From: a virus
Strand: one strand, 5' to 3'
DNA length: 64,000 nucleotides
Virus record (IMG/VR): IMGVR_UViG_3300030516_000004
Position 1 is the first letter of the stretch. Each line of letters begins with the position of its first letter. The notes below the pieces were generated by a model. The model worked only from the letters and a program-made list of their open reading frames with translations. It had not been told where the DNA came from and did not search any database. The translations under genes were made by a program, and so were the position numbers. This document shows positions 512 through 53,464 of this stretch, piece by piece.

Positions 512-1071
512 GAGTTGTTACCTCTCAGCTTGTCAGCGAATGCATTGCGTTCTTCGCGAGATTTGAACTCGTATGTGACTGCAAACACCAAAGCATTGTG
601 TTGAGTTTCTTTGTGTGGTTTAGGCAGCTCTGAATTAACCTTAATGGTGCGTGGAGCTACTCTGAATTTGAAGTTAGGGAACTTCTCTTGATTCAGAAAT
701 ACGCCAATATTGCAATTAAGAGCTGTATCCCAATGTTCTTCGCCACCATCACCTGAATACTGAACATTCTCACCAGCTAAAAGAGCTTTATGTGCCTCAG
801 CCCCGCTAATCAAGCCTTGGTCTTTTTTGATCTTGGGTGTTGCAAGTACACGAAGTTCAGCCAAAGTCAGTTCTTCACCTTCACACTTATAAAACTCTGT
901 TAAAGAAACCCCATAATAGATATCCTTTTCTTGAGTAAATAAATATGGAATAGACTCTCTTAAAAACTCACGTTTATTTGACCATTTCCAATGAAACCCA
1001 AGCTCAAAAAACAACTCCTGAGCCTCTTTGCTCTCAGCTTCATCTTTAACTTTGATTTTGTAGTTATCCAT
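508..1071 (-). CDS. Hypothetical early-left protein
   Basis: 187-aa ORF, upstream aaggag RBS. Confidence 0.8.
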   Translation of the reverse strand: MDNYKIKVKDEAESKEAQELFFELGFHWKWSNKREFLRESIPYLFTQEKDIYYGVSLTEFYKCEGEELTLAELRVLATPKIKKDQGLISGAEAHKALLAGENVQYSGDGGEEHWDTALNCNIGVFLNQEKFPNFKFRVAPRTIKVNSELPKPHKETQHNALVFAVTYEFKSREERNAFADKLRGNNS

Positions 1072-2740: not shown

Positions 2741-2813
2741 AACACAATCTGTGTCAAACAAAATGATTGACCGTTCAAACAAAACGTTTTATATTTATAA
2801 AACAAATTGTTTT
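2741..2813 (+). promoter_or_regulatory. PR promoter (TTGACC-17-TATATT) with four OR operators
   Basis: -35 at 2767-2772, -10 at 2790-2795; 15-bp palindromes at 2741, 2755, 2776 and 2799 (perfect AAAACAAATTGTTTT). Confidence 0.8.
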
Positions 2814-2827
2814 ATGCGGATTTACTT

Positions 2828-3019
2828 ATGGATTCAATCGATGCAGACCGCGCCCTGATTGAAGCAAATGGCGGAGCTTCAGCACTGGCGCGAAAACTCA
2901 AATATAGGACTCAACGCGTCCAAAACTGGACCGTTCGAGGCATACCGCCAAAAGAAAAACTTTTACATCCAGAGATTTTTATGAAAAAGAAATCTCGATC
3001 TAAAGCACTAGCTGCTTAG
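2828..3019 (+). CDS. cro: Cro-like HTH protein
   Basis: GGASALARKL..QRVQNWTVRGIP HTH; position; ATG 2828 preferred to the track's TTG at 2807. Confidence 0.85.
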   Translation: MDSIDADRALIEANGGASALARKLKYRTQRVQNWTVRGIPPKEKLLHPEIFMKKKSRSKALAA

Positions 3020-8796: not shown

Positions 8797-8933
8797 TGGA
8801 AATCTTTTTAGCAATTCTTTTAGTGATATTTACTGTGTTTTCAGCGCCAAAGGGAGCTTTCGCTTGTATTGGTCATGCACTAATTATCGTGGCTTTTCTT
8901 AGTGCAATCACAGTAATGCATATTTACGGTTAG
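8796..8933 (+). CDS. 45-aa two-TM microprotein
   Basis: Hand-translated; TGATG overlap with the upstream gene. Confidence 0.65.
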   Translation: MEIFLAILLVIFTVFSAPKGAFACIGHALIIVAFLSAITVMHIYG

Positions 8934-8943
8934 GGGTAAGGGT

Positions 8944-9381
8944 ATGAATGCGGCAGTAGTAACACCAGTAATGGATTGGAATAAATACACGATAGATGGA
9001 TGGTTAGAGCAGTTCGGCGCTTGGTGTGAAACTGTGCGCATGAAAGGAGGTGATTTACCAGATGGTTTGCATATTAATCAGATTTATTGGTTGATGCGTG
9101 AGGCGGGGAAAGAGATGCCAAAAGGAAAGTCTTACATCCGTTGTGAGATCAATGATTTTGAAGCGGATCAAGTGCAAGCGCTTTTGCGCAGTATCTTTAA
9201 GTCTGATTCAGTGGATTATCAAGCCAAGTATGCAGTGATGTGCTTAATCAAGCATAAGGTAGAGAATCGCTCTCTTAGTGCAGTGGCAGCGCTAACAAAT
9301 CAAAGTAAGCCAATTGCACACATGATGATTAATTGTGGTCGTTTCTTTATTCACTCTAGAGACAACCGGTTAAAGATTTGA
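8944..9381 (+). CDS. Late antiterminator Q-like protein
   Basis: Last early gene, C-terminal HTH-like region, followed directly by a pR'-like promoter and terminator. Confidence 0.75.
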   Translation: MNAAVVTPVMDWNKYTIDGWLEQFGAWCETVRMKGGDLPDGLHINQIYWLMREAGKEMPKGKSYIRCEINDFEADQVQALLRSIFKSDSVDYQAKYAVMCLIKHKVENRSLSAVAALTNQSKPIAHMMINCGRFFIHSRDNRLKI

Positions 9382-9387
9382 GGACTA

Positions 9388-9427
9388 TTGACTGGTATAC
9401 CGCGTAATGCTATATTTCTGGTATAGT
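9388..9427 (+). promoter_or_regulatory. Late promoter pR' (TTGACT-17-TATATT, extended -10) with a -10-like pause element TATAGT
   Basis: -35 at 9388-9393, TG at 9408-9409, -10 at 9411-9416, TATAGT at 9422-9427. Confidence 0.8.
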
Positions 9428-9456
9428 GCGCTTGAGTAGTCAGGTTCACTAGTATT

Positions 9457-9484
9457 AAAAGCTCATCATTCGATGGGCTTTTTT
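9457..9484 (+). terminator. tR'-like terminator
   Basis: AAAAGCTCATC-attc-GATGGGCTTTT then T run. Confidence 0.85.
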
Positions 9485-9511
9485 GTTGCCTATCGAAAAG
9501 TGAGAAGAAGA

Positions 9512-9838
9512 ATGGAAAACCAACATAAGCATATCAAGGGTTATCGCGAGTTAAGTAAAGAAGAAATTGACTTAATGAATCGAATTAAAGAAAAAGGCGC
9601 TGAACTGCTTATGTTGCAGAATGAATTAGCAAATCGTTTAAGCACCGACTTAGAAGTTAAGCAGGCAGCAGCGAAGCGTGCACAATTAGCGCCAAATGAT
9701 TTTGCAAGTCCTGAATGGCAAGAGTTTGAACGCTTCAAAGAAGCTGAACCTTTACGTTGGGCCGCAATTGGTCGCACTGATATCCAAACAGGCATTATGG
9801 CTTTAGTTCGTGCTGTAGGACAGCAAGCAACTTTATAG
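9512..9838 (+). CDS. acb2: Anti-CBASS Acb2-like cyclic-oligonucleotide sponge
   Basis: MENQHKHIKGYRELSKEEIDLMNRIKEKG and EPLRWAAIGRTDIQTGIMALVRA match Acb2 motifs as I recall them; start ATG 9512. Confidence 0.85.
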   Translation: MENQHKHIKGYRELSKEEIDLMNRIKEKGAELLMLQNELANRLSTDLEVKQAAAKRAQLAPNDFASPEWQEFERFKEAEPLRWAAIGRTDIQTGIMALVRAVGQQATL

Positions 9839-9857
9839 GTGTTGCTAAGGAGGTCAC

Positions 9858-9971
9858 ATGCTCCGAATCATCAAGCAAGTATTCTGTTGGCATTGTTGGG
9901 AACATGAATTGGATTACAACAAAGACCCAATCAAAGAATGCAGAAAGTGTGGAAAGGTTAAAAGTTTATAA
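9858..9971 (+). CDS. 37-aa Cys/His zinc-binding microprotein (DUF1660-like)
   Basis: MLRIIKQVFCWHCWEHELDYNKDPIKECRKCGKVKSL; aaggaggt RBS. Confidence 0.75.
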   Translation: MLRIIKQVFCWHCWEHELDYNKDPIKECRKCGKVKSL

Positions 9972-9980
9972 AGTTTGTAT

Positions 9981-10084
9981 TGCAATGTGCCAGAGAGGTT
10001 TAATGGTGACATATACAAGACGAGGTGTGTTTAGGTATATGCTGAAATACCACCCCGCCACAGGTTCAAATCCTGTCTTTGCAA
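9981..10084 (+). ncRNA. tRNA-like RNA / pseudo-tRNA (class II D-arm, perfect T-arm, aberrant anticodon region)
   Basis: Acceptor TGCAATG/CTTTGCA, D-arm CCAG-AGAGGTTTAA-TGG, T-arm ACAGG-TTCAAAT-CCTGT; 52-nt middle; no encoded CCA. Confidence 0.7.
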
Positions 10085-10095
10085 TACTTTTTTAT

Positions 10096-10126
10096 AGCCC
10101 CACCGATTGGTGGGGTTTTCTTTTTT
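10096..10126 (+). terminator. Intrinsic terminator after the tRNA-like element
   Basis: gccccacc-gatt-ggtggggt followed by a T-rich tract. Confidence 0.8.
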
Positions 10127-10139
10127 GGAGAATAAGAAA

Positions 10140-10343
10140 ATGCGAATGAGTCGAGTATTGTTAGCTACAGCATTAGGAATGGCAGTAGCAAGACCACAGT
10201 TTGGAACCTTAAGCGCATTATCTGCCATGGGTGGTGAAACTTCTCCATTTGCATTTAAGCCGAAGCCAAATAAAAGCAAACCCAATAAATTAAGCCAAAA
10301 GAAGAAACGCCTTATTGCTCGTCGGCTAAATAAACATAAGTGA
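10140..10343 (+). CDS. Small protein with very basic C-terminus
   Basis: ggag RBS; KPKPNKSKPNKLSQKKKRLIARRLNKHK tail. Confidence 0.65.
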   Translation: MRMSRVLLATALGMAVARPQFGTLSALSAMGGETSPFAFKPKPNKSKPNKLSQKKKRLIARRLNKHK

Positions 10344-10350
10344 GCTGCGT

Positions 10351-10521
10351 ATGGACACAATCGAAGCGAAGAAGAATTTAAATGCATTGTGCAATGAAAT
10401 AGAAAAGCTACAGAACCTTTCACGTGGTTTGATGACAGCAAAAGAAATGCTTGATATTGACGCGAAGATAAAGCGACACAAAGACCAAGTGAAGAACATT
10501 AGAAGCAATCTTCATGTGTGA
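10351..10521 (+). CDS. 56-aa coiled-coil hypothetical protein
   Basis: Hand-translated MDTIEAKKNL...RSNLHV; overlaps the next start by 8 nt. Confidence 0.65.
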   Translation: MDTIEAKKNLNALCNEIEKLQNLSRGLMTAKEMLDIDAKIKRHKDQVKNIRSNLHV

Positions 10522-10792
10522 TTCAAAGCGATTGAAGGCTATTCGGTTGTTGCCTTGTGTAGTTTGTGGAAGATCGCCAGTAGATGCAGCACATAGCAAC
10601 CAAGGCGCCCATAATAAGGGATTAGGCATCAAGGCAGATGATAGTTATACAATCCCATTATGTAGGCAACATCACATCGAATATGACCAACTGAAAACAA
10701 TGACAAGAGAACAAGCGGTAGAATGGTTTGATCGAATGTTAGAAAAGACAGACCGCATGCTTAATTTAAATAACAATGAAGAGGTTTTCTAA
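10514..10792 (+). CDS. DUF968-like His-Cys (HNH-like) putative nuclease
   Basis: PCVVCG...DAAH...TIPLCRQHH motif. Confidence 0.75.
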   Translation: MCDSKRLKAIRLLPCVVCGRSPVDAAHSNQGAHNKGLGIKADDSYTIPLCRQHHIEYDQLKTMTREQAVEWFDRMLEKTDRMLNLNNNEEVF

Positions 10793-35004: not shown

Positions 35005-36957
35005 ATGAAATACAGAACAGAAATAGATGGGTTGCGAGCAATCGCAGTTTTATTAGTTATATTCAATCACTTAGGTATTACCTTTTTTAGTGGTGGATAT
35101 GTAGGCGTTGACGTTTTCTTTGTTATTTCTGGATTTTTAATTACTTCAATTATTAGTAAGGAAATAACTGAGAAAACATTTGCATTTAAAAACTTCTATA
35201 AAAAACGGATATTAAGATTAGCTCCTGCATATTTTCTAGTGATTTTATGCTGTTTCCTTTTCTCATATTTTTTATTAGCTCCAATGGAGTTAGTATCTTT
35301 TTATAAAAGCGTGATGTATTCGCTAGTTTTCGCATCTAACTTTTTTATGTGGAAAGAAGTTGGTGGCTATTTCTCTGCAAATGCGGAATACATTCCACTT
35401 CTGCATTTGTGGTCATTGGGTGTAGAAGAGCAGTTCTACATTATATGGCCAACAGTTTTGATGATCATGCTTGCATGGTTTAAACGTTGGACTGGTTTAT
35501 TGATTGCTTTAGGTGTAATCCTAGGTTGTGTTTTAGCACATCTACTCTCGATCAAAGCGCCAGCAATGTCTTACTTTTTATTGCCGGCTCGTGCATTTGA
35601 GTTGATGATTGGCGCTGCAATCGTATTTATTAAGCCCAACAACTTTAAGTCTAGTAATGCAAATCTCTTTGCTGCATTTGGCTTGATCATGATTGTTTTT
35701 TCTAGTTTCTATCTGACTTCTGAAAGCATTTTCCCAGGTCTTTATGCTTTACTTCCGTGTGTTGGTACAGCTCTTATTATCTACAGTTTAAAAGGCCATG
35801 ATGGGATTATTAAGAAATTCCTTTCACTAAATATTATGTCATTCTTCGGGAAAATTTCTTACCCGCTTTACTTGTGGCACTGGCCTCTGATCGTATTTTA
35901 TAAGATCAGATTTGGCGAGCTTTCTTATCTAAGCATGGCAGGTTTGATGATTGCCATGACTTTGCTGTCATATCTAACCTATGAGTACGTCGAAAGAAAG
36001 ATTCAAAACAAGTTTAAGGCTTCAAATCCTGCGCGCATTGTTTTGAAAGGTTATTTAATACCTGTATTGGCATTTGCTGCCTTTAGCGGCTTTGTTGTAT
36101 ATGAAGATGGGTTAAAGCAACGTTTTAACAGCAATGTGCCAGAAATAGAAAATAGTATTAATGCAGCTTCGCATAAGATACGTGGGAAGTGTTTATATGC
36201 GCCAGCAGGCGAGTTGCCGCCTAAAGATGCATGTTCCCTAGGTGTTGATAATGCAGAAACAGAAGTTCTGCTTGTAGGCGACTCTCATGCAAATCATTAC
36301 TCAAATATGATAAATGTGATGCTAAAAGATGCTCATAAGAGGGGTTATGAGATTGATCAAAACTCAACTTTCTTTATGCCAGATGTTGAGCGTTATGTCC
36401 TTAAAGACGGAACAAAGAAGTTAGCACCTGAATTTAAAACACGTAATGATTTAATCAAGCATCATCTGACTGAGCATAAGTACAAGTATGTTATTTTGGC
36501 TGGCTCTTATGCTGATAACTTTATTGTCAGTCATTTTGAAGATGGAACAGGCCGAAGTAGTGCTGATGTAATGGAATCTGGTTTAGATCGAGCTATAGAT
36601 CTTGTTGAGAATACTGGTGCCAAAGCATTAATTATCAAGGGTATGCCGAAAGTTCAAGAGCTTGATCAGAATTGCCCACTTCGTAAAGAAATGTTTGGTG
36701 ATATTGATTGCGGCTTTGATAGAAAGATTCACGATGAGCATTTTAGGGAATGGAATGAAATGCTAAATCGACTTAAAGCTAAGCACAAAAATCTTGAAGT
36801 GATAGATATTGAGCCTTATTTCTGTGACGCAGAAAAATGCTACCTAGATCGTAATGGAACGCCTCTTTACATCGACCAAAAGCACATCAATTATGTTGCA
36901 TCAGGTGAGATTGGGAATTGGTATATTAAGACAAACAGAAATCATTTTAAGGAGTAG
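35005..36957 (+). CDS. Acyltransferase-3 plus SGNH O-acetyltransferase (OafA-like)
   Basis: IDGLRAIAV, GVDVFFVISGFLIT, HLWSLGVEEQFY, GDSHA Ser, DQKH DxxH. Confidence 0.95.
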   Translation: MKYRTEIDGLRAIAVLLVIFNHLGITFFSGGYVGVDVFFVISGFLITSIISKEITEKTFAFKNFYKKRILRLAPAYFLVILCCFLFSYFLLAPMELVSFYKSVMYSLVFASNFFMWKEVGGYFSANAEYIPLLHLWSLGVEEQFYIIWPTVLMIMLAWFKRWTGLLIALGVILGCVLAHLLSIKAPAMSYFLLPARAFELMIGAAIVFIKPNNFKSSNANLFAAFGLIMIVFSSFYLTSESIFPGLYALLPCVGTALIIYSLKGHDGIIKKFLSLNIMSFFGKISYPLYLWHWPLIVFYKIRFGELSYLSMAGLMIAMTLLSYLTYEYVERKIQNKFKASNPARIVLKGYLIPVLAFAAFSGFVVYEDGLKQRFNSNVPEIENSINAASHKIRGKCLYAPAGELPPKDACSLGVDNAETEVLLVGDSHANHYSNMINVMLKDAHKRGYEIDQNSTFFMPDVERYVLKDGTKKLAPEFKTRNDLIKHHLTEHKYKYVILAGSYADNFIVSHFEDGTGRSSADVMESGLDRAIDLVENTGAKALIIKGMPKVQELDQNCPLRKEMFGDIDCGFDRKIHDEHFREWNEMLNRLKAKHKNLEVIDIEPYFCDAEKCYLDRNGTPLYIDQKHINYVASGEIGNWYIKTNRNHFKE

Positions 36958-38050: not shown

Positions 38051-39343
38051 TTATTTATTAATTTTGGGCAAGCCTTCCCAGCTAAAATAATTCTGCGTTA
38101 GTTTGTCTCGAGTCATTGCCCAACCTCTATTGGGCAGCCTACAACTACCTACCGCAATTTTGTGTTTCCCAAACTTCTCGACTACTTGTTCTATGGTAGT
38201 CATTAAATTCTCATCCTTTTCGACCTTATTCCAGTCTGTTAGCAGATCGTAGTTAAAGGTATCTTTAGGCTCCAAGCCTGTCAAAATCACCCCGCATTTT
38301 TTATATTCAATTCCTCTCGCATATAGATGTCTCATTAAAAAAGTGGCTATCTGCACCATCTTCAAAACATTGTCAGTTGGCACACTAACCGGAAGAGACT
38401 GTGATCTATTAAAGAAAGGCCTGTGCTTGTCGAATGGATTTGATTGGGCAAAAACGATAATACAGCCGCACAGCAATCTATCTTTTCTTAACCGGACCAC
38501 GGCATTTTGCATGTAGAGTGAAACAGCTTCTTGTAGGTCGATGAGCTCAGTAACTTTCTGACCGAATGATTTAGAGGAAATGATCTGCTTTTTGCTTGGC
38601 GGTGTATGTTCAATCTCAATGCATGAAATGCCTTGCAGTTCGTAGACTGTACGGGCCATCACAATAGAAAAGTGCTTCTGCATTTCTCTAGGCTCAGTGC
38701 AAGCTAGATCTAGTACAGTATGAATGCCCATGCCATTTAACTTTTTAGTATGCTGCCTTCCAACACCCCAAACCTCTGATACATCTATAGAGGATAGATA
38801 GGACTCTTTATTACAAGGATCCATAGCAACTAAATTACATACACCATCAAATGCTTTATTCTTCTTTGCAATGTGGTTTGCTATTTTTGCCTCAGTCTTT
38901 GATCTGCCTATTCCAATGCAAACTGGAAGGCCAATCCATTGCCATATACGGGCCTTCATATGTTGGCAGTAAGCGGTTAGATCATAATTATTAAAATAGG
39001 CTGTTAGATCTAGAAAGCATTCATCAATAGAGTAGACCTCTTGCTCGCCCTCGGCTACATAGTGCCTTAGAATATTCATAAATCTGCGGCTCATCTCAGC
39101 ATAGACACTATAGTTGCTCGAGAGTACTACTACATTATGTCTTTCTACAATGTCGCGAATCTGAAAGAGGGGAACACCCATCTTGATGCCAAGATCTTTA
39201 GCTTCTTGTGATCTGGCAACTGCACAGCCGTCGTTATTGCTGAGGACAATGACGGGCCGGTTGTTCAGTTCAGGCTGAAAGAATCTCTCACAACTGACAT
39301 AACAGTTGTTGACATCCACTAATGCAAAAATTCGCTCTCTCAT
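38051..39343 (-). CDS. umuC: Y-family translesion polymerase, Pol V UmuC-like
   Basis: ALVDVNNCYVSCE, VVLSNNDGC, YSIDECFLD, UmuC-type C-terminus. Confidence 0.95.
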   Translation of the reverse strand: MRERIFALVDVNNCYVSCERFFQPELNNRPVIVLSNNDGCAVARSQEAKDLGIKMGVPLFQIRDIVERHNVVVLSSNYSVYAEMSRRFMNILRHYVAEGEQEVYSIDECFLDLTAYFNNYDLTAYCQHMKARIWQWIGLPVCIGIGRSKTEAKIANHIAKKNKAFDGVCNLVAMDPCNKESYLSSIDVSEVWGVGRQHTKKLNGMGIHTVLDLACTEPREMQKHFSIVMARTVYELQGISCIEIEHTPPSKKQIISSKSFGQKVTELIDLQEAVSLYMQNAVVRLRKDRLLCGCIIVFAQSNPFDKHRPFFNRSQSLPVSVPTDNVLKMVQIATFLMRHLYARGIEYKKCGVILTGLEPKDTFNYDLLTDWNKVEKDENLMTTIEQVVEKFGKHKIAVGSCRLPNRGWAMTRDKLTQNYFSWEGLPKINK

Positions 39344-39562: not shown

Positions 39563-39789
39563 TTACGCCAAATCTACGCCAAAATATAGATAAGCTATTG
39601 ATTTTATAAAATGAATTGGTGCGCCCGGCGGGCACTTGACTATAAATAACAACTTCCTAGGTTTTTCTATCTTTTCTTATTATTTCATATAAAACAAACA
39701 AATGCCAAATTGGCTATTAATCTGTACTTCTATTATTTCGTATTTTTTCCTATTATTTCAATTACCACAATTACGCCAGACTTACGCCA
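39563..39789. other. attP: core 39617-39632 (tRNA 3' end CCCGCCGGGCGCACCA, minus strand), arm sites, IHF site
   Basis: TACGCCA tandem arms at 39563/39574 and 39771/39782; IHF consensus AATCAATAGCTTA at 39591-39603; next to int. Confidence 0.8.
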
Positions 39790-39797
39790 GAAAAATT

Positions 39798-40784
39798 ATG
39801 GCTTCTTTTAGACAACGAAACGATACATGGCGAGCCGAGATAAGTGTAAACGGAATTCGCGAAAGTGCAACCTTTGATACAAAAGCGCAGGCTAGGGCTT
39901 GGGCATCCAAACGCGAGACACAATTACGTGAACAATCGCATGGTAAGCTTCCTGACCATTCTTTTTTAGAAGCAATTGAACGCTATCTAAGTGAAGTGAG
40001 TGTTAAAAAGAAAACTCATGAGAATGAAGTTAAGAGAATGGCCTTCTTTAAACGTGAGTATAAAAAGCTTTGTCAAAAGCCATTAGCCAAAGTTACAACG
40101 GACGATTTAGTACAATGGCGTGACTCACGATTGAAAGAAGTGCAGGGCGCTACCGTTAGACGTGAAGCTAATATATTGGCGTCTTTATTTACCGTCGCTC
40201 GAAAAGAATGGAAGTGGATAAGGGAGTCGCCTATGGCAGATTTAACTTTGCCACCTCCTTCTAAGCACCGGGATAGACGAATTGCGCAAGATGAAATTGA
40301 TAGATTATGTCTTGCAGCCAATTGGGATAATAATGTTCCGGTAAACTCAACTCAGCAAATTATTGTTGCTTTCTTATTTGCTATTGAAACTGCAATGCGT
40401 GCAGGAGAGATTGTTGGCTTAACTTGGGATCGAGTCTATTTAAAAGATAGATATCTTGTTTTGACTGAAACAAAGAATGGTACTAAGCGAAATGTACCGT
40501 TATCCAAGCGTGCAGTTGAGTTGCTAACTTTATTAAAAGGTCTGGATAGAAAACGAGTCTTCACTTGTAACACTCAAAGTTTTGATACGCTGTGGCGTAA
40601 GATAAGGGATAGATGCCAAATCACTGATTTACACTTTCATGATACTCGCCATGAAGCATGTACACGCCTTGCAAGGAAATTAGAAGTATTAGACTTGGCT
40701 CGGATGATTGGGCATAAAGATTTAAGAAGTTTAATGATTTACTACAACGCTACTGCAAGCGAAATTGCAACGAGGCTAGATTAG
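39798..40784 (+). CDS. int: Tyrosine integrase
   Basis: TAMRAGE Arg, TKNG Lys, HDTRH, GHKD, IYY Tyr; start ATG 39798. Confidence 0.95.
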   Translation: MASFRQRNDTWRAEISVNGIRESATFDTKAQARAWASKRETQLREQSHGKLPDHSFLEAIERYLSEVSVKKKTHENEVKRMAFFKREYKKLCQKPLAKVTTDDLVQWRDSRLKEVQGATVRREANILASLFTVARKEWKWIRESPMADLTLPPPSKHRDRRIAQDEIDRLCLAANWDNNVPVNSTQQIIVAFLFAIETAMRAGEIVGLTWDRVYLKDRYLVLTETKNGTKRNVPLSKRAVELLTLLKGLDRKRVFTCNTQSFDTLWRKIRDRCQITDLHFHDTRHEACTRLARKLEVLDLARMIGHKDLRSLMIYYNATASEIATRLD

Positions 40785-53296: not shown

Positions 53297-53305
53297 AGTT
53301 TGTAT

Positions 53306-53409
53306 TGCAATGTGCCAGAGAGGTTTAATGGTGACATATACAAGACGAGGTGTGTTTAGGTATATGCTGAAATACCACCCCGCCACAGGTTCAAATCCTG
53401 TCTTTGCAA
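53306..53409 (+). ncRNA. tRNA-like RNA (copy 2)
   Basis: Copy of 9981-10084. Confidence 0.7.
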
Positions 53410-53464
53410 TACTTTTTTATAGCCCCACCGATTGGTGGGGTTTTCTTTTTTGGAGAATAAGAAA

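Follow-up and report, generated by a model that had tools for sequence, protein, structure and literature searches.

A tRNA-shaped element beside an Acb2/Tad1-like gene

The virus record IMGVR_UViG_3300030516_000004, whose sample is a plant metagenome, represents a temperate Acinetobacter siphophage related to Vieuvirus. The stretch of DNA analysed here, 64,000 nucleotides (nt) long and hereafter called the window, is this 43,325-bp record wrapped on itself: positions 1-20675 equal 43326-64000 with 100% identity at an offset of 43,325, and hence every feature of the first 20.7 kb appears twice. Our subject is an element on the forward strand, at 9977-10087, the tRNA-shaped part of which spans 9981-10084. 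It forms the 3' end of a short unit that runs from a pR'-like promoter to an intrinsic terminator and that further contains an Acb2/Tad1-like open reading frame (ORF) and a Cys-rich ORF of 37 amino acids (aa) (Table 1). The comparison with its relatives points to a rare family of RNAs in which the body of a class-II tRNA is kept and a predicted pseudoknot takes the place of the anticodon arm.

The promoter-like site agrees with the sigma-70 consensus at 10 of 12 positions, is the sole one of its kind within 8800-10400 and, judging from its sequence, is the point at which transcription of the element probably begins. The Acb2/Tad1-like ORF is the first gene past this promoter and also matches the C-terminal part of phrog_717. 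A first-pass annotation of the window, made from the letters and their ORFs, had placed the element just past the pR' region, next to acb2 and ahead of a terminator. The neighbouring gene was borne out by the Pfam match, the terminator by a G+C-rich stem with its T tract, and the position by the pR'-like promoter and by a sister phage (L123) that carries real tRNA genes there. The element begins 5 nt past the stop codon of the 37-aa ORF, which is kept in the related loci L001, L003, L005, L118 and L123, in each case directly 5' of the terminator or of the element. The terminator itself is also present in sister phages without the element. Further downstream lie genes for an HNH protein, NinB and the small and large terminase subunits, and a tail tube gene is likewise encoded.

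Table 1. Features of the element and of the surrounding locus, in window coordinates
Feature	Position	Strand	Remarks
Q-like antiterminator gene	8944-9381		phrog_79; upstream of the element
pR'-like sigma-70 promoter	9388-9416	+	TTGACT-17-TATATT, TG-extended -10; 7 nt after the Q-like gene
Acb2/Tad1-like ORF, 121 aa	9473-9838	+	Pfam PF24729 Acb2_Tad1_hairpin, 59.2 bits (cutoff 27)
Cys-rich ORF, 37 aa	9858-9971	+	two CxxC motifs; phrog_4188
Stem extension, 5' strand (GTAT)	9977-9980	+	pairs with ATAC at 10084-10087
Acceptor stem, 5' strand (positions 1-7)	9981-9987	+	pairs with 10077-10083; 7 bp, U6.U67 mismatch
U8, G9	9988-9989	+
Class-II (Ser/Leu/Tyr-type) D arm	9990-10006	+	C10-G25, C11-G24, A12-U23, G13.A22; A14, G15, G18G19, A21
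UGA junction after the D stem	10007-10009	+
Predicted pseudoknot strand a (CATATAC)	10010-10016	+	pairs with the hairpin loop at 10035-10041
A-rich connector (AAGA)	10017-10020	+	between strand a and the hairpin; family consensus A-A-R-A
Long hairpin at the variable-arm position, 5' strand	10021-10034	+	top stem TTAG (10031-10034) with CTGA (10042-10045)
Apical loop, 7 nt, predicted strand a' (GTATATG)	10035-10041	+
Hairpin, 3' strand	10042-10057	+	includes an AATAC motif common in the family
CC with C48 (partner of G15 in the tRNA core), and T arm	10058-10076	+
Acceptor 3' strand (66-72), A73, extension 3' strand	10077-10087	+	no CCA
Intrinsic terminator	10096-10127	+	stem of 9 bp, 6 of them G-C, and a T tract; separated from the element by 8 nt
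Integrase	39702-40784	+	PF00589; ~13 kb from the element on the 43.3-kb circle
Second sight of the same element	53302-53412	+	wrap-around, not an independent copy

The body of the element is that of a tRNA in nearly every detail. The D arm has the pattern of genuine phage tRNA-Ser genes, the T arm (10060-10076) is a perfect 5-bp stem (ACAGG/CCTGT) around the loop TTCAAAT, and the nucleotides that build the elbow and the core (U8, A14, G15, G18G19, C48, T54, T55, C56 and A58) are all present. Pairing of the flanks lengthens the acceptor helix to 11 bp, whereby position 73 is itself paired, and with TAC after A73 the element encodes no CCA. The acceptor, D-arm, T-arm and flank features, as well as the missing CCA, had all been read off the sequence in the first-pass annotation, and we found each of them. 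A local search with the Rfam tRNA model RF00005 scores 30.3 bits at 9981-10084 (gathering cutoff 29, E=1.5e-4). The score passes the cutoff because the acceptor, the class-II D arm and the T arm are canonical; the alignment uses these three arms and has a 35-nt insert in lieu of the 17-nt anticodon arm, in keeping with the original description of a tRNA-shaped RNA with a canonical elbow and without a canonical anticodon arm. A search of the whole window at the Rfam gathering thresholds returned no match, and a default run of ARAGORN on the window gave neither a tRNA nor a transfer-messenger RNA (tmRNA). The element matched no riboswitch or other family in Rfam. The minimum-free-energy fold of its full length has a z-score of -1.67, which is not informative.

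The knotted middle domain and its family

Between the D and T arms the element departs from a tRNA. The seven nucleotides that follow the UGA junction are complementary at 7/7 positions to the apical loop of the long hairpin downstream, which gives a helix of 7 bp enclosing 18 nt. This hairpin (10021-10057, ~37 nt) has its base 2-3 nt before the T stem, at the site of a long variable arm. Separate folds of the middle from the window and eight relatives mostly gave the same arrangement of linker, hairpin and loop-linker pairing. We conclude from the sequences that the middle is a linker plus a hairpin at the variable-arm position, the loop of which is predicted to pair back to the linker in a pseudoknot that leaves no free anticodon-like loop. 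Two alternative folds had been put forward for this region. That of CATATAC with GTATATG is upheld by compensatory double changes in two close relatives, L001 and L002; the other, a GGTAT/ATACC stem presenting a GCT triplet, is not kept in either of them and was discarded. By eye we also rejected a kink-turn reading of UGA...CUGA, which is absent from L001, and an interaction of the terminator with the knotted domain (CCACCCC vs GGTGGGG), which has the wrong sense for complementarity and is absent from L001 and L002.

Relatives were collected with two pattern scans. A scan of metagenomes used a D-arm...T-loop pattern with enlarged spacing and found 7 members, while a scan of IMG/VR used the D arm and GGTGA only. 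Together they yielded ~25 distinct sequences of 101-166 nt, on contigs with 37-68% G+C, after ordinary class-II tRNAs and intron-bearing archaeal tRNAs matched by the same patterns had been set aside. As delimited, members of the family continue from a class-II D arm through UGA into a strand of 4-8 nt that can pair with the loop capping the next hairpin. The window shows this loop-complementary strand after its UGA, together with a long hairpin that abuts the T stem and has a covarying top stem; it scores 101.3 bits with the family covariance model, of which it is a seed sequence. GGTGA is invariant in 25/25 distinct members, the UGA junction being part of the IMG/VR pattern and absent from that of the metagenome scan. 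Outside these scans the family appears to be scarce. A BLAST search of 50,697 phage records with the element and two relatives found no homologue in a cultured phage and just a 33-nt tRNA-Glu match, and a pattern scan of 185,579 species genomes returned ordinary class-II and intron-bearing archaeal tRNAs only, with no copy in Acinetobacter.

Across the family the helices covary. RNAalifold on 15 members recovered an acceptor helix of 8 bp, the D stem, the top of the hairpin with its 7-nt loop and the T stem. In the covariance-model alignment of the 25 distinct members, 93.8% of the cells are paired as against 61.4% after shuffling, and the covariation score is 0.747 vs 0.169 (0/500 shuffles); controls in which the nested pairing was slid give 35-47% paired. 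In each of the 8 acceptor pairs both partners vary. The helix at the top of the hairpin (helix 3) is 88% paired and covaries in 4/4 pairs. The T stem is 100% paired, with covariation in 4/5 pairs. The extension of the acceptor is likewise shared: position -1 pairs with 73 in 18/23 members (P<2e-4) and -2 with 74 in 17/23 (P=0.011), the column pair 4/189 of the extension covaries, and CCA is encoded in one member only (L193).

The pseudoknot was examined in two ways. When the 9 nt after GGTG were compared with the rest of the middle, the best complementarity summed to 137 as against 111.4+-4.5 for shuffled targets (0/1000), and in most members the partner lay at a near-constant position in the hairpin loop. 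With fixed alignment columns, in some rows of which the register slips, 61.9% of the pseudoknot pairs are formed vs 31-49% when slid (0/2000 shuffles). The loop-linker pairing is thus kept with differing sequences in most members. Two further features that were in no search pattern are also conserved, namely the A-rich connector (A in 23/25 at column 46 and in 20/25 at column 48) and C48 (column 163, C in 24/25). Taken together, the comparative evidence indicates that the structure is under selection, with all nested helices covarying across a rare family. Random decay had been named as the outcome that would count against a functional RNA, and the homologues instead show covariation.

Other tRNA-like units turned up in the metagenome contigs. 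L097 carries tandem class-II tRNA-like units on the reverse strand (155-699 and 1328-1418), with six matches to the family model. L101 has two such units in tandem (565-988, reverse strand), which have their acceptor, variable arm and T arm in common and differ in their enlarged anticodon loops of 24-34 nt.

Close relatives and genomic settings

The closest relatives, L001 and L002, are the two IMG/VR contigs with the element itself. Between the window and L001, 3/112 positions differ outside the knotted domain and 19/48 inside it, with the pairing kept; the knotted domain thus behaves as a cassette. In L001 the pseudoknot strands CATATAC/GTATATG are replaced by TATTAAC/GTTAATA, which amounts to three double compensatory changes, and by eye the pairs closing the loop have gone from TTAG/CTGA to GAAG/CTTC through two more double changes. 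L002 carries the same module and terminator behind different upstream genes. A full-length match to the Rfam family RF03046 (Pseudomonadales-1 RNA; 98.1 bits, cutoff 68) is found in L002 at 2408-2581 on the reverse strand, ~470 nt upstream of the element and on the same strand as it; the window has no such match.

A further 44 Acinetobacter phage loci were collected through a downstream 67-aa protein (39-99% identity in that protein), and BLAST and the covariance model found the element in 0/44 of them. In L118, with 99% identity in that protein, the same terminator comes directly after the 37-aa ORF, from which it follows that the element is a discrete optional insertion of ~115 nt. A different occupant is seen in L123, where two tandem real class-II tRNA genes (2646-2735 and 2741-2833, forward strand) lie in the same pR'-proximal region, between a tR'-like terminator and the 37-aa ORF. 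Both encode CCA; one is a tRNA-Ser-GCU (Rfam 56.8 bits) and the other, which ARAGORN missed, is Ser-UGA-like and has an unusual D arm (37.2 bits). Their D arms differ from that of the element, which is not derived from them. In L001 (1356-1443, reverse strand) and L003 (1310-1495) a promoter-like site is followed by a region of ~120 nt that ends in a terminator, just past the gene upstream of the 37-aa ORF; this stretch is missing from the window. The region scores 27 bits with the Rfam family AbsR28, below its cutoff, and resembles a short transcript of the 6S/tR' type.

Near-identical copies (90-99% over the element) were found on contigs from four other sequencing runs, all of DNA, and differ from the window at five sites within or just after the element. 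One variant changes A5 to U and creates a second U.U mismatch in the acceptor, and another lies in the D loop. The change 10046 A>G, seen in three runs, would keep a possible U.G pair, 10061 C>T (C50>U) gives a U.G in the T stem, and the last is an A>G in the terminator. With the exception of A5>U, these independent samples show structure-neutral changes only.

Elsewhere in the family the surroundings vary. In 6/22 members the element forms part of a same-strand tRNA cluster, and in two of these a real tRNA is 7-8 nt away. We further noted as neighbours a Q-like gene (L107), head/neck genes (L208), ant (L168), a helicase (L105) and a nuclease (L195). A terminator follows in only 5/23 members and was ruled out as a feature of the family. 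In one phage tRNA cluster (L229), ARAGORN reports a tRNA with a 4-nt anticodon (gtgg) at 10533-10607 on the forward strand, 60 nt upstream of a family member.

Likeness to known RNAs and possible roles

The element almost certainly reads no codons. ARAGORN called 0/24 members, and a 5-bp anticodon stem with a 7-nt loop was not found in the element. When introns are allowed, the program forces the window copy into a tRNA-Pro(AGG) with a 17-nt intron, which needs a 4-bp stem and U37. Across the family the same setting gives anticodons for Pro, Ala, Gly, Gln, Asp, Met, Ile, Leu and Tyr, with intron sites that range inconsistently over positions 32 to 41 and are non-canonical, and we accordingly rejected an intron-bearing tRNA. 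The end of the molecule differs from the unpaired N73 and CCA of a canonical tRNA in that A73 pairs with U-1, and as the acceptor pairs covary freely, no conserved set of aminoacylation identity elements is kept.

By shape, the closest known RNAs are the class-II tRNA-Ser, including their phage copies (RF00005). The likeness extends to the 7-bp acceptor, U8, G9, the 3-bp D stem with G13.A22, G18G19, C48, the 5-bp T stem with a TTCRAAT loop and a long hairpin just before the T stem, as well as to the location in tRNA clusters or tRNA hot spots that is shared with phage tRNA-Ser. Unlike tRNA-Ser, the element has no anticodon arm of 5 bp and 7 nt, the loop of its ~37-nt hairpin is predicted to be locked to the strand after the D stem, its position 73 is paired without an encoded CCA, and it is ARAGORN-negative. 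Reuse of the tRNA shape without decoding is known from tmRNA, in the tRNA-like structures of plant viruses and in mascRNA (MALAT1-associated small cytoplasmic RNA), where pseudoknots adjoin the tRNA-like part and tRNA enzymes recognise it. Of these, tmRNA accepts alanine, bears an ORF and is devoid of a D stem; the ARAGORN run, which covers tmRNA as well, reported none in the window. In the plant-virus structures the pseudoknot builds the acceptor itself at the 3' end of the RNA, whereas here it replaces the anticodon arm. The small RNAs rnaC (species 1) and rnaD (species 2) of phage T4 likewise sit in a phage tRNA cluster, and the end of rnaC resembles the T arm and acceptor strand of a tRNA. 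However, neither has a class-II D arm or a GGUGA junction; with the family model rnaC scores 29.3 bits, less than real tRNAs and solely by way of its T arm, and rnaD is not matched, and hence a kinship with them was rejected for want of similarity in sequence or model.

Among the bacterial Y RNAs, the YrlA RNAs are non-decoding and have a domain that mimics the D arm, T arm and acceptor of a tRNA; some are cut by RNase P and tailed with CCA, phages also carry them, and their genes adjoin Ro60/rsr and bear a Ro-binding stem (Chen et al., 2014, PMC4201824). The element differs in having its arms in the normal tRNA order and in its additional pseudoknot domain. No TROVE/Ro60 domain was found among the ten large window ORFs tested against Pfam, nor did the element match an Rfam Y RNA at E<=10, and an identity with YrlA was set aside on these grounds. 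Lastly, the allo-tRNAs with 8/4 or 9/3 acceptor/T stems are reported to have serine-type class-II bodies with a longer acceptor helix (Mukai et al., 2016, PMC5389517). Allo-tRNAs keep a normal anticodon arm and decode, in contrast to the element with its 5-bp T stem and no anticodon arm. The element belongs with the non-decoding tRNA mimics and is undescribed in the literature searched: full texts gave no anticodon-less, pseudoknotted class-II tRNA mimic of phages, though subscription journals were poorly covered and novelty is unproven.

The family keeps those parts of a class-II tRNA that are read by shape, by proteins and by RNase P, while locking the decoding end, which indicates a purpose other than translation. 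At about even odds (a probability of roughly 0.5), we read 9977-10087 as encoding a small structured RNA that does not decode, imitates a serine-type (class-II) tRNA in its body and occupies a protein. Under this proposal, the element would be transcribed from pR' together with the Acb2-like gene and probably be excised by RNase P and RNase Z; its tRNA shape would be read by factors that sense the elbow and the class-II body rather than the anticodon, and the RNA would act as a stable mimic occupying a host or defence protein that binds class-II tRNAs. Candidates for such factors are RNase P and RNase Z themselves, the CCA enzyme, modifiers of the T loop or a defence enzyme that selects tRNAs with a long arm. 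The divergence of the knotted domain and the presence of tRNA-Ser genes at the same place in L123 would fit a conflict over serine-type tRNAs.

Several observations weigh against this interpretation. Bacterial RNase P acts poorly on a closed acceptor helix of 9-11 bp that lacks CCA, which makes the excision uncertain. The register of the lower hairpin is ambiguous in the window copy because GGTGTGT and ACCACC permit several pairings (GGTG with CACC or TACC, and CG with CG), and in two lineages A5>U leaves the acceptor with a further U.U mismatch. The element is dispensable, given the 44 related loci without it, and no protein neighbour is conserved across the member loci. None of the sequencing runs listed as containing the element is recorded as RNA, and two wastewater runs marked 'RNA?' contain just 0.23 of the words of a wider stretch of 701 nt. 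As regards the family itself, the search patterns fix the D arm (and in the metagenome scan the T loop too), so that invariance there arises by construction; the covariance-model alignment was fitted to the nested structure; and since real tRNA-Ser score 45-62 bits with the family model, the boundary is soft and the model alone does not delimit the family.

Of the alternatives, the one that survives best is a module acting in cis, which we regard as unlikely. In this case RNase P or RNase Z would use the tRNA shape solely as a recognition handle, or the shape would provide a stable structure on the 3' side, and the module would set or protect the 3' end of the mRNA for the acb2-like and 37-aa ORFs or keep that mRNA apart from late read-through transcripts. 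Such tRNA-like punctuation is established for the mitochondrial t-elements and mascRNA, and the placement at the end of the short pR' unit, 5 nt past a stop codon and 8 nt before the terminator, would suit it, as would the flank-closed acceptor helix expected of a structure embedded in a longer RNA. However, a handle needs the acceptor and T arms only, yet the D arm, the tertiary pairs of the core and the covarying pseudoknot have all been kept; moreover, the members within tRNA clusters have no mRNA to punctuate, and few members are followed by a terminator.

It is also conceivable, if improbable, that the tRNA body is a carrier lending stability and processing to a functional cargo, the pseudoknot domain, which might be an aptamer that binds a protein or a small molecule, with the two Acinetobacter alleles as two specificities. 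The concentration of divergence in the knotted domain, with its structure kept, and the conserved A-rich connector, reminiscent of ligand-binding H-type pseudoknots, speak for such an arrangement. Against this, nearly all nucleotides of the domain lie in freely covarying helices, with few conserved unpaired bases to form a pocket, and the Rfam search gave no riboswitch.

An extension of the mimic proposal into a two-part counter-defence unit strikes us, with all its parts taken jointly, as similarly improbable. Here the element would be the RNA half, a class-II-shaped decoy co-expressed from pR' with the Acb2/Tad1-like nucleotide sponge. The decoy would titrate an immune enzyme that picks tRNAs with long variable arms by their body, such as a nucleotidyltransferase of the MenT/AbiEii type or a Schlafen-like tRNase, and the knotted domain would be a fast-evolving cassette for specificity or escape, with sister phages carrying spare tRNA-Ser genes instead. 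The first-pass annotation had likewise joined acb2 and the RNA into one anti-defence block, a link that fails to hold across the family: L002 has other genes upstream, and further members lie in tRNA clusters, near head genes or near ant.

That the element is a decaying, functionless pseudogene of a phage tRNA-Ser is a poor fit to the data. It would account for the ARAGORN-negative result, the absence from most sister phages, the one or two U.U mismatches in the acceptor and the fact that a sister phage has genuine tRNA-Ser genes in this region. Yet the architecture persists in relatives across the whole range of 37-68% G+C, every helix, that of the pseudoknot included, having undergone compensatory changes. 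Variation among the near-identical copies from independent samples is almost entirely structure-neutral, and the L123 genes, whose D arms differ, are not the source of the element.

Phage tRNA genes are now viewed as weapons against host defences that deplete tRNAs, and phage tRNAs are known to counter tRNA-cleaving defences; to our knowledge, every such anti-defence tRNA still decodes. Together with the adjoining Acb2/Tad1-like counter-defence gene, this background had led to the earlier suggestion of a decoy for anticodon nucleases (PrrC, RloC, colicin-like nucleases, AriB of PARIS or retron tRNases). We consider this very unlikely: these nucleases read the anticodon stem-loop, whereas the sole apical loop here is fully paired in the predicted pseudoknot and no anticodon-like loop is exposed, and the linkage to acb2 is not conserved. 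Least credible of all is that the element truly decodes, as a tRNA that has a short intron or an unusual, expanded anticodon arm and may accept serine. In its favour one may invoke the class-II body, read by seryl-tRNA synthetase largely independently of the anticodon, the tRNA-Pro(AGG) call of relaxed ARAGORN and the GCT triplet. Yet that call contradicts the covarying 7-bp helix, the forced anticodons and intron sites of the family are unrelated, the stem presenting GCT is absent from L001 and L002, position 73 is paired with neither CCA nor a conserved identity set, and we know of no system for splicing short introns in bacteria.

If the element does act as a mimic, its RNA would offer a natural probe for a bacterial factor that recognises the tRNA elbow and a long-arm body, and a counterpart in nature to the tRNA scaffolds employed by RNA engineers. 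The family is invisible in current phage annotation, as neither the standard tRNA finders nor Rfam annotation flag it. As a clean presence/absence cassette beside a known type of gene directed against the cyclic-oligonucleotide-based anti-phage signalling system (an anti-CBASS gene) in a temperate Acinetobacter phage, the element should be tractable for deletion and host-range work.

We also considered an attachment site (attP) overlapping a tRNA gene and rejected it, the integrase being ~13 kb away and the element a complete tRNA-like unit. Beside the integrase lie two accessory genes (35005-36957, forward strand, and 38051-39343, reverse strand); the accessory products encoded near it are an acyltransferase-3/SGNH protein of the O-antigen-acetylase type and a polymerase of the UmuC/ImpB family.

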